Shown here: positions 10,972 to 56,719 of the stretch, one piece after another
Layout of the letters: every line of letters starts with the position of its first letter
Numbering within the stretch: position 1 is the first letter of the stretch
DNA from: Escherichia phage UPEC01
DNA length: 64,000 nt
Strand: one strand, 5' to 3'
Sequence record: MW233709
Translations under genes and position numbers: made by a program
Notes under the pieces: generated by a model
Databases searched by the model: none
The model's input: only the letters and a program-made list of their open reading frames with translations
What the model was told of the DNA's origin: nothing

Positions 10972-11007
10972 TGCTTTAATTTTATGGCTGTATAATGGTT
11001 CTAGACC
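10972..11007 (+). promoter_or_regulatory. MotA-dependent middle promoter upstream of uvsY (ori(uvsY)-equivalent position) with GGTTCTAGACC box
   Basis: MotA box TGCTTTA 10972-10978, 12-nt spacer, TATAAT 10991-10996, then GGTTCTAGACC 10997-11007. Confidence 0.7.
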
Positions 11008-11024
11008 CTTACATTGGATACATT

Positions 11025-11459
11025 ATGAAAACAGAGATTGAATATAAGTTGGAAGTCTTTCAGGACGAGTTAGATGCAGATTTAAAAATTGATGGTACAC
11101 AACTTCAATATGAAACACAAAACAACGTTTTGTTGCATAGCAAATGGTTGAGATTGTATACCAACTGCAAGAAAGAAATAATGCGTCTTGAGATTCAGAA
11201 GAAAACTGCACTGAAAAAACGACTAGACCATTATACGGGAAGGGGTGACCCAGGGGAAGAAGTATGCATGGATGTGTACGAGAAGTCAGAATTGAAAACA
11301 GTCATGGCCGCAGATTCAAGCGTGTTGAAGATTGATACTTCAATTCAATATTGGGCACTGCTCCAGGACTTCTGTAGCGCTGCATTAGATGGTGTTAAGT
11401 CACGAAGTTTCGCACTTAAACATATGTTAGAAATAAGACAATTTGAGGCGGGCAAGTAA
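11025..11459 (+). CDS. uvsY: UvsY recombination mediator
   Basis: From ATG 11025: MKTEIEYKLEVFQDEL...LQYETQNNVLLHSKWL...YWALLQDFCSAALDGVKSRSFALKHM...FEAGK, matching T4 UvsY as recalled; MotA-box middle promoter immediately upstream. Confidence 0.9.
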   Translation: MKTEIEYKLEVFQDELDADLKIDGTQLQYETQNNVLLHSKWLRLYTNCKKEIMRLEIQKKTALKKRLDHYTGRGDPGEEVCMDVYEKSELKTVMAADSSVLKIDTSIQYWALLQDFCSAALDGVKSRSFALKHMLEIRQFEAGK

Positions 11460-11831: not shown

Positions 11832-11999
11832 ATGTCAGATAAGATTTGTGTTGTCTGTAAAACTCCAATCGATTCTGCATTGGTTGTGGATACAGACCAA
11901 GGTCCGGTGCATCCGGGCGCCTGTTATAATTATGTTCAGAGTTTGCCAGTTACGGAAAATACAGAAGAGCAACTGAACGAGACCCAACTTTTAATTTAG
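11832..11999 (+). CDS. hypothetical small CxxC protein (uvsY.-2-like)
   Basis: ATG 11832 with GAGGAG RBS; reads MSDKICVVCKTPID...; 55 aa. Confidence 0.45.
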   Translation: MSDKICVVCKTPIDSALVVDTDQGPVHPGACYNYVQSLPVTENTEEQLNETQLLI

Positions 12000-16974: not shown

Positions 16975-17013
16975 TTTGCTTCAAATAAAATTGTGGTATA
17001 ATGGTTCTAGACC
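16975..17013 (+). promoter_or_regulatory. MotA-box middle promoter upstream of rnlB with GGTTCTAGACC box
   Basis: TTTGCTTCA, 13-nt spacer, TATAAT 16997-17002, GGTTCTAGACC 17003-17013. Confidence 0.6.
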
Positions 17014-17100
17014 TTCCGATACGATTAATTTCTTTTCAGAGAAAGAAAGTATAGAGAGTCTAATTTATAATGATATTTATAACATCAAAAGTGAGAGATT

Positions 17101-18108
17101 ATGTTTAAGAAATACAACAGCCTTGAAAATCACTATAACAACAAGTTCATTGAAAAGATTCGCCTGCAAGGCTTCACCAACGGTGAATGGGTAGCTCGTG
17201 AAAAGATTCATGGTACCAACTTTTCATTAATCATTGAACAAGACAATGTGACATGTGCGAAACGCACTGGACCTATCCTACCTGCAGAAGATTTTTATGG
17301 TTATGAAATTGTATTAAAGAACTATGCAGATTCTATTAAATCTGTACAGAAACTTTTGCAGGATATTAATTACCAGGCATATCAGATTTATGGCGAGTTT
17401 GCTGGTACAGGTATTCAGAAGAATGTGAATTACGGCGATAAAGATTTCTATGTGTTTGATATCCGCGTTACTAAAGAAGATGGTTTTGAATCCGTCCTGA
17501 CTGACACACTTATGGAAGCCTTTTGTATTATTCATAAGTTTAAAGTTGCTCCGCGCCTGGCTACTGGTAGCTTTGAAGACCTTATTAAGCTACCTAATGA
17601 CCTGGATTCTGTGGTCCCTGATTACAATTTTACAGTGGATAATGCAGGATTGACTACAGCAAATACCACTGATTTTGATGCAAAGGTGGAAGGTAAAGTA
17701 TTCACTGCTGAAGGATTTGTATTAAAACCTGATGTTCCTGCCTGGTTACCTAACGGCGAGCGTGTGGCGATTAAATGCAAGAACTCTAAATTCAGCGAAA
17801 AGAAAAAGTCTGATAAGCCTATTAAGGCCGCTGTTGTGTTGTCCCAGGAAGACCTGGATATTTTATGGCAGTTCACTGATTACGTGACTGTTAACCGTAT
17901 TAATAATGTTATCAGTAAAATTGGGGAAGTATCGCCGAAGGATTTTGGGAAGGTAATGGGTTTGACTGTCCAGGATATCCTGGAAGAAGCTGGTCGTGAA
18001 GGCCTTGAATTGACCCAGTCAGAAAATCCTGTTGAAGTTAAAAAGCAACTTATCACAAATGTAAGAGAAACATTAAGACATGTTTGGATTGCATTAATTA
18101 GTGAATAA
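17101..18108 (+). CDS. rnlB: RNA ligase 2
   Basis: 335 aa; [19 protein letters not shown]...[16 protein letters not shown] (nucleotidyl-transferase lysine motif KIHGTN) ...[22 protein letters not shown] matches T4 Rnl2 as recalled. Confidence 0.9.
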
Positions 18109-27075: not shown

Positions 27076-27146
27076 CTAGGTAATATGATTCATCATCTCA
27101 AGATAATGGCTTCCTAGAATCAACCACAGGAGCCCGTAGAACCGAT

Positions 27147-27184
27147 TATGCTTTTATTTATAACACTGTATAATGGTTCTACGG
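27147..27184. promoter_or_regulatory. composite element: plus-strand MotA-box middle-promoter copy (GGTTCTACGG variant) overlapping a minus-strand TATAAATA
   Basis: Plus: TGCTTTT, 13-nt spacer, TATAAT 27169-27174, GGTTCTACGG; minus: TATAAATA at 27155-27162. The plus-strand promoter points antisense into gene 18. Confidence 0.5.
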
Positions 27185-27220: not shown

Positions 27221-29200
27221 TTATTGTGGCCCAATCAGCTCATCAAAATCAGCACCAGTGCTTGTGGCTACGAAATTAAGCGTGATGTAGTTGATGCTGC
27301 GCGCAGGTTTAAAATAAATGCTAGCAACAAACTCATTTCGGTCTATGACCGACGGGGTGTTGTTAGTAGTATCACAAACCACACGACCTTCATAAATGCC
27401 ACCGAGTGCACGAATACCATCCAAGTATTGAGAAGTTTCCATACGGAATGATGCACGAGTGAAGTTATCGTTAAGCTCAAACAGTTTATATTTGGATGCG
27501 TCACCGATATTTTTCTTCAGCATATTCGTAAGACGGCGAACGTTAATATGGTCCATCGGAGATGGAACTTTAGTTGCAGTCTTATCACCATACAGAACAA
27601 AACCATCACCACCTGCGAAACCAACAACCGGGTTGATAGCTTCTTGATACATGCGGTCACGCTGGGTCTGACGAGGTTCAACAGCCAATTTCAGAACATT
27701 CAGAATCTGACCACGGTTATAACCAGCCGGAGACATCCAAGGCTGAGAAACATCATCAGTACGAGCACACAGTCCAGCCATATCAGCTGCCAGAGGAACC
27801 CAACGGTTAACGTCGTTATATTTATCATACTGATATTTATAGTTGCCATCAATCGCTGCATAAGTCGTGCTGATATTCATGTTATCAGTATCAAATGCGC
27901 CAGCACCTGTACGCCAGTCAATCAGGTTATCCACTGCACGGGTCAGAGGAACGTTAACCAACAGACCTTTCGGCGGGGAAATGAATGCCAAGCAATCCTG
28001 ACGTTCGTCAGCAATAGAAACCACGTGCTTCTGAACAGTGGAAGCGGTCGCATCACCTTCACCAGCACAAGCACCAGCGATAAGCAGGTTGATATGCAGA
28101 GCTTCACGGTCAGCGAACAGGTCCCAACCTTGCATCAAATCACCAGCGGTAATCTTATCGTTTGCAGAAATACCACCAGACAGATTGATGATACCACTGA
28201 AGCCTACAGGCCAGTTGCGAGATGTTGCATAGATGTAGTTGGAAGTACCTTTTGCAAAGTAGTCATCCAGGTAAATGTTATTACCATAAACATCTTTTTC
28301 GCCCTGCTTAGTAGACAAAACAACGTTTTCGACGATTGCACCATCGCGGCGAACGATAATTGCATATTGGTTTTCGGTCTGAGGACCATAGTTAAACACT
28401 GCACGAGCTATAGAAGCGCGGGAACCACCACCGGGGAAAATATCCAGATTTGCAGTTGCGCCTTTTTCAAATTCAGCTTTGGATACGATTTCAACTTCAA
28501 GAGTCGAACCAATTTCACCAGGATAAAGAGCAACAACACCCGGCATTGCATATTTTGCCAATGATGCCTGGAATTCCAGAGAAGTAATTGCTTCTTCACT
28601 GTTTTCTGCTTCAGTCAACAGAATGCCAGAATCGGTAACAATTTTCCCGACAGTGATGGTACCAGATACACCGGAAGAAGTGGTCGTAACTTCTGCAGTC
28701 CATGCACTGCCCAAATTAGGATACTGATTAATAGTTTTAGCAAATGCAATAATCTTATTGGTAGGAATAAAGATTGCCAGAATTTTACCATCAACATCGA
28801 CCTTGGTCACACGGCCAGCCGGTTCAACAACAGTCTGGTTGTGTTTAACTTGAATAACATCACCGACAGCATAGTTTGTACCAGCAGTTACGATGGTAGT
28901 TTCAATATTGCCAGCAATAGGGGATGCGTTTTTAGCTTCGTCACGGTTAACAACACGTACAGTACGGAGGTCGTTACCATATTGCAGGAAGTTCATCCCA
29001 CTCATAAAGTAATCTGCTGTTTCATTATTCGGACCACCAAACAAATCAACAAGTTCAACTTCGTTTGTAATCTGAGTTACCTGGAAAGCTGGGCCCCACT
29101 GGAATTTACCAACCAGCGCCGCACGACCCGTCGCGTTACGAACAACAGTGCTTTGGACCGTTGTTTCTTTGAGCTCAATGCCCGGAGATAATAAAGCCAT
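27221..29200 (-). CDS. 18: tail sheath protein gp18
   Basis: 659 aa, same length as T4 gp18; MALLSPGIELKETTVQSTVV..., C-terminal INYITLNFVATSTGADFDEL. Confidence 0.96.
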   Translation of the reverse strand: MALLSPGIELKETTVQSTVVRNATGRAALVGKFQWGPAFQVTQITNEVELVDLFGGPNNETADYFMSGMNFLQYGNDLRTVRVVNRDEAKNASPIAGNIETTIVTAGTNYAVGDVIQVKHNQTVVEPAGRVTKVDVDGKILAIFIPTNKIIAFAKTINQYPNLGSAWTAEVTTTSSGVSGTITVGKIVTDSGILLTEAENSEEAITSLEFQASLAKYAMPGVVALYPGEIGSTLEVEIVSKAEFEKGATANLDIFPGGGSRASIARAVFNYGPQTENQYAIIVRRDGAIVENVVLSTKQGEKDVYGNNIYLDDYFAKGTSNYIYATSRNWPVGFSGIINLSGGISANDKITAGDLMQGWDLFADREALHINLLIAGACAGEGDATASTVQKHVVSIADERQDCLAFISPPKGLLVNVPLTRAVDNLIDWRTGAGAFDTDNMNISTTYAAIDGNYKYQYDKYNDVNRWVPLAADMAGLCARTDDVSQPWMSPAGYNRGQILNVLKLAVEPRQTQRDRMYQEAINPVVGFAGGDGFVLYGDKTATKVPSPMDHINVRRLTNMLKKNIGDASKYKLFELNDNFTRASFRMETSQYLDGIRALGGIYEGRVVCDTTNNTPSVIDRNEFVASIYFKPARSINYITLNFVATSTGADFDELIGPQ

Positions 29201-29229: not shown

Positions 29230-31536
<2,307 letters not shown>

Positions 31537-50568: not shown

Positions 50569-51389
50569 GTATTTTTACATTTATCAATGAATCTGCAGAT
50601 AAACCAGGTCCGAAACCCAGTAAATCAGAACAACAATGGGTTGAAATAGGGGTTGAATTTTATACAGCAAAAGAAAAGGGAATGACCTCGAAGAAGTTTG
50701 CTGAAGAGAAAGGAATCAACTATTCGACCTTTACCAAAAGCATGTCGAGATATCATTCGAGAATTCAGACTGCTTATAAAGTATCCAAGCTCAAAAAGAA
50801 ACCCGCCGGTAAACTTACGAAGGCTGAACGTCAGCTGATAATGGTGAATAGCTTTAGAAAGAGCATAAGAGATAAGATTGCTAACGAAGGCGCTGCAAGC
50901 AACACCAAATCTGCCAGATGGTTCGCTGAGACAATTAAGAAATCAGTTCGTGGTCACGTAACGGCTAAACCTCAACCGGGTAAGATTTATGCTTATATCT
51001 ATGATGCAAAGCATAAGGATACTCTTCCGTATTGGGACAAATATCCGTTAATCATTTATCTTGGGCTAGGTAAGCACAATTTGATGTATGGTTTGAACTT
51101 GCACTATATTCCACCGAAGGCACGTCAAGAGTTCCTTGAGGAACTTCTTAAGCAATATGCTAATACTCCTACGATTACGAACAAGACTCATCTGAAGATT
51201 GATTGGTCAAAGGTGAAGGGATTTAAAGGGGCTGACCAGATGATTAAAGCATATATACCTGGCAATATAAAAGGTACTATTACTGAAATCAAGCCCAGCG
51301 ACTGGGCAAACGTTGTTATGCTTCCGTTGCAACAATTTATGTCGAAAGGCAAAAGATTCTCTTCCCAGAAAGTATGGAGAAATTCATAA
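50556..51389 (+). CDS. 2: DNA end protector protein gp2
   Basis: 277 aa (T4 gp2 274 aa); conserved order 4-2-3-1. Confidence 0.85.
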
Positions 51390-51424: not shown

Positions 51425-51463
51425 GGTCTAGAACCATTATAACACTGATTGTTTTAAAGCAAA
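51425..51463 (-). promoter_or_regulatory. MotA-box middle-promoter copy with GGTTCTAGACC box, on minus strand between genes 2 and 3 (antisense to gene 2)
   Basis: Minus strand reads TTTGCTTTA, 13-nt spacer, TATAAT, GGTTCTAGACC. Confidence 0.5.
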
Positions 51464-56566: not shown

Positions 56567-56640
56567 GGCCCTGTAGCTCAATTGGTTAGAGCATCCGGCT
56601 CATAACTGGCAGGTTTCCGGTTCAAGTCCGGATGGGGCCA
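56567..56640 (+). tRNA. tRNA with CAU anticodon (Met or lysidine-type Ile)
   Basis: Cloverleaf by hand: acceptor GGCCCTG/TGGGGCC, D-arm GCTC-AATTGGTTA-GAGC, anticodon loop CTCATAA (one U-C mismatch in stem), T-arm TCCGG-TTCAAGT-CCGGA; T4 itself carries a CAU tRNA-Ile. Confidence 0.8.
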
Positions 56641-56642
56641 CC

Positions 56643-56719
56643 CGGGGTGTAGCTCAATTGTATAGAGCAACGGTCTTCTAAACCGTAGGTTGTGGGTTAG
56701 AATCCCACCACCCCGACCA
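56643..56719 (+). tRNA. tRNA-Arg (anticodon UCU), CCA encoded
   Basis: Acceptor CGGGGTG/CACCCCG, D-arm GCTC...GAGC, anticodon stem ACGGT/ACCGT with loop CTTCTAA, T-arm GTGGG-TTAGAAT-CCCAC, then A-CCA; T4 encodes tRNA-Arg(UCU). Confidence 0.85.

Follow-up and report, generated by a model that had tools for sequence, protein, structure and literature searches.

A start-site sequence shared by a small class of predicted middle promoters in T4-related phages

A 64,000-nucleotide (nt) stretch of Escherichia phage UPEC01 (sequence record MW233709; hereafter the window) contains four composite elements in which a MotA box and a TATAAT hexamer are followed by a conserved sequence, here called the box, that lies across the predicted transcription start. 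The elements appear to belong to a class of promoters that is kept at the same genome positions across many relatives of phage T4, T4 included. The most likely role of the box is that of a start-site and 5′-leader module of a small middle-time regulon; that the four elements form a discrete conserved class of MotA/AsiA-dependent middle promoters carrying such a module, and so a small regulon, is a reading that we hold with about even confidence.

Box promoters in the window, TH41, and T4

The window derives from a T4-like phage of the genus Gaprivervirus and is 97.5–99% identical to Escherichia virus TH41. A preliminary description had listed the four composite elements and assigned them to uvsY, rnlB, genes 18/19, and genes 2/3. 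Reading of the sites found the elements present as described, and tblastn with T4 proteins placed them in the same gene contexts:

Copy 1, 10972..11013, plus strand: MotA box TGCTTTA at 10972–10978, 12-nt spacer, TATAAT at 10991–10996, GGTTCTAGACC at 10997–11007, with the similarity of the box running on to about 11013; just 3′ of the gene 25 stop and before uvsY; predicted start A11003, uvsY ATG 22 nt on at 11025.
Copy 2, 16977..17013, plus strand: TGCTTCA at 16977–16983, 13-nt spacer, TATAAT at 16997–17002, GGTTCTAGACC at 17003–17013; upstream of rnlB; predicted start A17009, 92-nt leader, rnlB ATG at 17101.
Copy 3, 27149..27184, plus strand: TGCTTTT at 27149–27155, 13-nt spacer, TATAAT at 27169–27174, GGTTCTACGG at 27175–27184; gene 18/19 spacer; predicted start A27181, gene 18 stop 40 nt on at 27221.
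Copy 4, 51425..51461, minus strand: TGCTTTA at 51461–51455, 13-nt spacer, TATAAT at 51441–51436, GGTTCTAGACC at 51435–51425; gene 2/3 spacer; predicted start A51429, gene 2 stop 40 nt on at 51389; MotA box 13 nt from the gene 3 ATG (51475), which is on the opposite strand.

All four copies share an exact block of 13–20 bases across the predicted start. The 13-mer TATAATGGTTCTA has exactly four perfect matches in the window, with a chance expectation of about 0.002 per 128 kilobases (kb), and the 11-mer GGTTCTAGACC has exactly three, at copies 1, 2, and 4; the pattern TGCTTNA-N10-14-TATAAT is matched four times against 0.09 expected. When the copies were aligned together with their flanks, identity was confined to TGCTT, TATAAT, and the next 7–13 nt, and the spacers and flanks were found to be unrelated. 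Recent duplication of a single element therefore does not account for the copies, and we rejected a recent duplication or a mobile cassette on these grounds. With the sites being orthologous across genera (below), the common origin by duplication considered in the preliminary description is likewise not supported. Either selection or a homogenizing process of some kind maintains the shared blocks. The PeSLs of Arbiol et al. 2010 are reportedly mobile early promoters joined to a stem-loop and repeated as whole units in hyperplastic regions. They resemble the box promoters in being repeated promoter-containing sequences of high within-genome similarity; the box promoters differ in sharing short blocks with dissimilar spacers, in being of the middle type, and in occupying fixed orthologous sites, and neither repetition of the whole cassette nor variability of its positions was observed.

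The MotA-box consensus, (a/t)(a/t)(a/t)TGCTT(t/c)A near −30, is matched by copies 1, 2, and 4. TGCTT(T/C)A had been ascribed to all four copies, but the last base departs in copy 3 (TGCTTTT); this single departure is inside the tolerated variation of MotA boxes (PMC2988021). The spacers, 12 nt long in copy 1 and 13 nt in the others, and the −10, a perfect TATAAT in each copy, fit the spacing of 12 ± 1 base pairs (bp) and the sigma-70 −10 (TAnnnT), and the assignment to middle promoters of the MotA type is borne out at the level of sequence.

The motA and asiA homologs lie beyond the window and were read from the near-identical TH41 genome (170.5 kb), in which tblastn of the T4 proteins identified MotA (32% identity, E 5e-26) and AsiA (52%, E 2e-22). 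The 13-mer is found there five times, each behind a MotA-type box, and a position matrix adds two slightly variant copies, so that seven of about 31 strong MotA-type sites are box promoters. Genome-wide in TH41, the 11-mer occurs solely at the three promoters that correspond to copies 1, 2, and 4; TCTAGA has five sites in total, three of which are these promoters. Copy 3 is also present in TH41. Homology to T4 places the three copies that are outside the window upstream of a cd.3 homolog, at the site where T4 has PnrdC.7, and between a modA/modB-like gene and srd, the last being directed back into the modA-like gene.

A scan of T4 recovered four promoters consisting of TGCTT(T/C)A or CGCTTTA, 12–13 nt, and TATAAT-G[AG]n-TCT-AAG[TC]CC:

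Start 115371: PuvsY, also the oriF promoter; box carrier, mapped as MotA-dependent.
Start 53325: PnrdC.7; box carrier, mapped as MotA-dependent.
NC_000866 75968–76005, plus strand: predicted promoter in the gene 3/gene 2 spacer, antisense to gene 2 (predicted start 76001).
NC_000866 11868–11902, plus strand: predicted promoter in the srd/modA spacer, antisense to modA (predicted start 11898).

The two mapped starts, taken from Table 1 of the review by Hinton (PMC2988021), coincide with the first A that follows TCT, 7 nt past TATAAT, and the box thus covers the positions from −6 to roughly +6 or +12. Copy 1 and PuvsY are orthologs, the T4 start mapping to the equivalent A, and the earlier identification of copy 1 with the position of T4 ori(uvsY) is upheld. 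Neither plus-strand promoter appears in the same table, which lists 58 mapped middle promoters, and the T4 sequence records have no feature annotated at them. PuvsY and PnrdC.7 resemble the copies in the window in their MotA box at −30, the spacing, the sigma-70 −10, the type of box, and the start on the A after TCT. They are the only 2 of the 58 mapped promoters to carry the block from −6 to +12; PnrdD and P34i show partial likeness, and the mapped PrnlB of T4 has a different position and is without the box. The box is therefore not a generic feature of middle promoters, for which the published consensus ends at −10 (PMC2988021), and the earlier suggestion that the block goes beyond the promoter consensus is sustained. 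No mention of the box turned up in Hinton 2010, Kreuzer & Brister 2010, Nolan 2006, Patterson-West 2018, or Wolfram-Schauerte 2022, a set that does not cover the older subscription literature, and a full-text literature search with strings of the box sequence returned no phage-related paper.

T4 also contains, inside gene 34 (NC_000866 153486–153463, minus strand), the sequence ATGAATCTAGACCATCCAATAA, a near-copy of PuvsY from −8 to +16 (ATGAATCTAAGTCCATCCAATAA) with identical blocks of 9 and 11 nt. The near-copy lacks both a MotA box and a −10, is located some 470 nt upstream of P34i, the oriG promoter, and bears the Gaprivervirus-type TCTAGACC.

Conservation across genera

For comparison among genera, we used 43-kb segments of one Dhakavirus, one Mosigvirus, and one Jiaodavirus and further loci from IMG/VR, retrieved by UvsY, gp2, Srd, and RnlB profiles. 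Orthologous box promoters were found at uvsY, gene 2/3, and srd/modA in more than 10 genera, with the genus-specific variants TCTAGACC, TCTAAGTCC, TTTAGGTCC, and TTTGAGTTC. The box of the uvsY site is kept in 36 of 38 related IMG/VR loci; the promoter there follows the pattern TATAATGG + YYT + purine + G(G)T(Y)C(C)TT, with the spacer and upstream sequence varying freely, in Gapriver-, Dhaka-, Mosig-, Tequatro-, Karam-, Moon-, Jiaoda-, PM2-, CHI14-, EcS1-, and TG1-type phages. No box was seen in the uvsY promoters of one Pseudotevenvirus and one Slopekvirus, and one Krischvirus was ambiguous; RB49 and RB43, of the Krischvirus and Pseudotevenvirus groups, have been reported to lack a motA ortholog (PMC1524935).

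Most, not all, of the groups having the uvsY pattern share the antisense box promoter of gene 2/3, which is present in T4, the Dhaka-, Mosig-, Karam-, and Moon-types, PM2, CHI14, EcS1, and contigs of Acinetobacter phages. Contigs of Aeromonas phages have TATAAT and a box-like sequence at this site, with no MotA box seen upstream. In three loci (L063, L066, and L068) the gene 2/3 spacer holds an insert, seemingly an open reading frame on the opposite strand, and no box promoter was found within 260 nt of the gene 2 stop. The antisense promoter upstream of srd, directed toward modA, occurs in the T4-, Gapriver-, Mosig-, and PM2-types and in one further group. The box promoter of the nrdC.7 site is common to T4 and TH41, those of rnlB are found in Gapriver-, Dhaka-, and Mosigvirus, and the gene 18/19 copy is limited to Gapriver- and Dhakavirus, being absent from T4, Mosigvirus, and Jiaodavirus. 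Upstream of rnlB in many genera (loci L163–L177, L195, and L198), a MotA box stands about 22 nt before the sequence TATAATGGTTT, and a second −10-like sequence, GATATA, lies at the canonical 11–12 nt; the arrangement looks like an overlapping pair of −10 elements.

Information content, taken over 47 distinct promoters, remains high between −6 and about +6 and moderate as far as +10; in the spacer it is low. Of 46 distinct promoters, 42 have a discriminator of 6 nt. A perfect −10 is constant, as are G at −6, G at −5 (87%), a pyrimidine run with T as its last base at −1, and, downstream, a purine start, G(G)TYC, and a T/C-rich stretch. As a control, we compared the ordinary P1 promoter between T4 and Mosigvirus and found nothing shared past the −10.

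The preliminary description had emphasized a TCTAGA palindrome within the block as a possible binding site. The start-site sequences of the genera are the following:

Gaprivervirus (window): TCTAGA
T4 (Tequatrovirus): TCTAAG
Mosigvirus: TTTAGG
Karamvirus: TTTGAG
Dhakavirus: CCTAGG or CTATGG
Jiaodavirus: ACTAGT

CTAG often forms the core across genera, but dyad symmetry is not conserved because orthologous promoters carry TCTAAG, TTTAGG, TTTGAG, and the like, and TCTAGA itself is particular to Gaprivervirus. On the sequences of the other genera, we rejected TCTAGA as a palindromic site and functional unit. The conserved unit is therefore the discriminator with the first 6–12 transcribed bases.

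Antisense copies, RNA structure, and replication origins

Copies 3 and 4 are oriented antisense into genes 18 and 2, as had been noted, and would yield RNAs antisense to these genes; T4 P34i likewise fires against the local gene orientation. The geometry of such copies is conserved. The antisense start lies about 40–60 nt past the stop of gene 2, gene 18, or modA and transcription would run back into the gene, and the upstream half of the promoter adjoins the start region or promoter of the next gene. The gene 19 late-promoter motif TATAAATA thus lies in the spacer of copy 3, at 27163–27156 on the minus strand, where an overlap had been recorded before, and the MotA box of the T4 anti-modA promoter neighbors a GTTTAC motif similar to the −35 of T4 early promoters. 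Damping of gene 2, modA, and gene 18 at middle times, or interference with read-through, may reasonably be inferred from this arrangement. If unterminated, the transcript of copy 4 would reach genes 53 and 5, in the sense direction, after about 1.3 kb.

Both copies are associated with inverted repeats:

27134–27143 CCGTAGAACC / 27175–27184 GGTTCTACGG: perfect 10-bp inverted repeat surrounding the MotA box, spacer, and −10 of copy 3 and TATAAATA; the variant box of copy 3 is one of its arms.
51448–51439 TCAGTGTTAT / 51410–51401 ATAACACTGA, minus strand: 10-bp inverted repeat surrounding the tail of the −10 and the box of copy 4.

The conserved sequence at copies 3 and 4 could thus serve the sense late mRNAs of genes 18–19 and 2–3 as a hairpin, processing, or translation signal, its promoter look being incidental. 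The perfect pairing of the 10-bp arms agrees with such a role, as do the hairpin that almost all genera have in the gene 2/3 spacer and the closeness of the copy 4 MotA box to the gene 3 start codon. A MotA box, spacing, TATAAT, and box of the same kind are, however, found at sense promoters with mapped starts, and the place of the gene 2/3 hairpin relative to the antisense promoter shifts among genera while the promoter is kept: the hairpin surrounds the promoter in Dhaka, PM2, CHI14, EcS1, and Aeromonas phages (loci L054–L100) and is downstream, as CTTCC...GGAAG, in the T4, Mosig, Karam, and Moon types. We consider a function confined to the late mRNAs extremely unlikely.

The rnlB leader (window 17009–17061) has a stem at its 5′ end, where AGAC... 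pairs with ...GTCT about 50 nt on and the end encoded by the box closes a 53-nt stem. The arms are AGACCTTC/GAGAGTCT in the window, AGACCCC/TGGGTCT in TH41 and VR20, and GAGGGTAT in two other Gapriverviruses, and their differences look compensatory on both sides (TH41 locus L001, about 29685–29737; L152–L154). Another hairpin lies about 135 nt downstream of copy 4 (51307–51293, minus strand). It sits within conserved gp2 codons (P-x-D-W-A), which makes its meaning ambiguous; similar hairpins occur in the T4, Moon, and Karam types, but their presence across other genera is inconsistent, and a short RNA from copy 4 defined by a terminator was rejected on these grounds. A role of the 5′ end as a trans-acting seed was rejected as well: complementary sites in T4 and TH41 are only scattered, and one that overlaps the T4 gene 16 start codon does so with a mismatch and is not conserved in TH41. 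About +77 in the anti-modA transcript (L144–L147 of Gaprivervirus, L146 of Mosigvirus), inside the 3′ end of the modA-like gene, we observed a GC-rich hairpin whose two arms both differ in a compensatory manner (CTACGCGAAGCGTAG versus CTACACGCAGTGTAG). The 5′ leader GUCCUUUA may bear a resemblance to boxA, GCUCUUUA. A search of the whole window with Rfam at the gathering score gave no family at the promoter sites and only two transfer RNA genes, which are adjacent on the plus strand (56567–56640 and 56643–56716; RF00005, 62 and 74 bits).

As copy 1 is the ortholog of the oriF promoter, the preliminary description had raised the possibility that the other copies are origin-type promoters too, with persistent R-loops priming leading-strand synthesis as at T4 oriF. 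The likeness to the R-loop origins oriF and oriG, middle promoters whose transcripts can prime, is one of promoter sequence. The transcripts of three conserved members have no open reading frame to serve, as is also true of the oriG promoter. The T4 copies, at 11.9, 53.3, 76.0, and 115.4 kb, lie 0–5.5 kb from oriA (near soc), oriC (near rI.-1), oriE (near repEA), and oriF (PMC3016281); by our own estimate for the three non-oriF copies and windows of ±5.5 kb, such proximity to four of the five mapped origins has a chance of ~3–4% and is suggestive at best. Other evidence disagrees. P34i, the promoter of oriG, which is the only other proven R-loop origin, has no convincing box: against a box matrix built from non-T4, non-Gaprivervirus boxes, it ranks 7th of 58 with a score of −3.9, and we rejected an origin-specific motif on the failure of this test. 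The T4 origins are reported to share no motif, oriE to need an early promoter, and R-loop formation to need no specific sequence, and plasmid screens recovered oriF and oriG only (PMC3016281). Downstream A+T or purine content was uninformative, separating neither the known origins nor the box promoters from other middle promoters; over +10..+69, oriF and oriG were not distinguished from other T4 middle promoters by either measure, with P34i ranking 51st of 58 for A+T. The claim that all box promoters are origins is not supported, and we regard it as quite unlikely.

A start-site module and its alternatives

We propose that, at middle times, host RNA polymerase remodeled by AsiA would be recruited by MotA to TGCTT(T/C)A at −30, would use the perfect TATAAT, and would start at the A of TCT-AGACC, 7 nt past the hexamer. 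The box would have two halves. The first is the putative untranscribed 6-nt discriminator, G-G/A-n-Y-Y-T. Its GG is placed where region 1.2 of sigma-70 contacts the non-template strand, and the constancy of GG at −6/−5 fits such a contact. Lambda PR, GATAATGGTTGCA, is a strong sigma-70 promoter with a discriminator element for region 1.2 and is similar in that GG directly follows its −10, its discriminator is 6 nt long, and it starts at A. A discriminator of this kind leaves unexplained the conservation from +2 to +12 and the existence of genus variants under the same host polymerase. The second half would be the first 6–12 transcribed nucleotides, 5′-AGACCYUU here, 5′-AAGUCCUUCC in T4, and 5′-AGGUCCUUCC in most genera. 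Together the halves would fix the start and give the transcripts of the class the same pyrimidine-rich 5′ end. The box may act through the initiation complex, through the common 5′ leader, or both; the leader could influence, for example, how stable the transcript is, whether it escapes termination, or whether a phage factor recognizes it.

The regulon so defined would comprise, at orthologous sites, the uvsY mRNA (in T4 also the oriF primer RNA), nrdC.7, the anti-gene-2 RNA, and the anti-modA RNA and, as lineage-specific members, rnlB, the anti-gene-18 RNA, and cd.3. Within the window, two copies would drive mRNAs (uvsY and rnlB) and two would drive noncoding RNAs. The antisense RNAs of the regulon would damp genes 2, 18, and modA at middle times.

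Boxes of one genome tend to be alike. All four T4 copies have TCTAAG[TC]CC, three copies of the window have TCTAGACC, and GGTTTTGAGTTC is found at both the uvsY and the anti-gene-2 loci in Karamvirus and nowhere else. In a permutation test on 11 genus-level pairs, the uvsY and anti-gene-2 boxes were closer within than between genomes, with p about 0.001–0.003 for genera that are not phylogenetically independent; in 5 of the 11 groups, the two boxes differ at 5–7 of 12 positions. The genome-specific part of the box is −4..+10. Since T4, RB69-like, Dhaka-, and Gaprivervirus all infect Escherichia coli and use the same host polymerase, drift of the boxes in step within a genome suggests a phage-encoded partner, a shared 5′-leader function, or short-tract gene conversion. 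A stronger version of the proposal is that a deeply conserved regulon, set by TATAAT-GGnYYT followed at the start by AGGTCCTTCC and by its genus variants, is read by a co-evolving phage protein or RNA and couples the uvsY/oriF transcript to the antisense RNAs of gene 2, modA, and, in some genera, gene 18; we advance this version tentatively, as possible but doubtful.

A phage-encoded partner could also be a DNA-binding protein that uses −6..+12 as an operator and switches this subset of promoters off or on, its specificity changing from genus to genus together with the box. The box extends across the start site, a position at which repressors act, and marks a discrete subset of promoters, its copies within a genome are closer than orthologs between genomes even for phages of the same host, and CTAG-centered palindromes are seen in several genera (TCTAGA, CCTAGG, and GGACTAGTCC in Jiaodavirus). 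Dyad symmetry is nevertheless absent in T4, Mosigvirus, Karamvirus, and others, the GG at −6/−5 is constant in all genera and better fits a constant partner, the host polymerase, than a drifting one, and a candidate protein was not identified. On balance, we think an operator unlikely.

Conversion would make the similarity a by-product of recombination between strong promoters, with no function beyond that of a good promoter. T4-type phages recombine intensely, the boxes are alike within genomes, T4 gene 34 holds a near-copy of PuvsY without a promoter, and the window and TH41 diverge right after the box in the rnlB leader. The spacers and flanks, however, are not homogenized, and conversion tracts would therefore have to be shorter than 25 bp with almost no flanking homology. 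The positions of the promoters are stably orthologous across genera, and the box is kept at distances at which an ordinary promoter has diverged. We give little credence to conversion as the explanation.

Several observations, besides the relatedness of the genera in the permutation test, weigh against a start-site module with a common function. The rnlB promoters of many other genera retain just TATAATGGTTT. The downstream half of the box varies (AGACC, AAGTCC, AGGTCC, ATGGTT, and GAGTTC) and shifts by 1–2 nt relative to the start, such that a single recognition sequence, whether RNA or DNA, cannot be formulated. The sequences downstream of the box copies yielded no RNA fold in common, and a shared structure was rejected, the 5′-terminal stem being confined to the rnlB leader. 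Finally, copies 3 and 4 are promoters by prediction from sequence, and the inverted repeats around them could instead serve late mRNAs of the sense strand.

Middle transcription in T4 is a textbook system, and its promoter definition nonetheless ends at −10. If the proposed reading is true, a start-site module on a few promoters would superimpose a further level of control on sigma appropriation, in a class that includes the promoter doubling as the replication origin oriF and several promoters able to make antisense RNA only. The reading predicts new noncoding RNAs in T4, with plus-strand starts near 11,898 and 76,001, and swaps of the box from genus to genus would provide a handle for the factor or property that sets these transcripts apart. 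It would also offer a testable route by which gene 2, encoding the protector of DNA ends, modA, and gene 18 may be restrained before late times.

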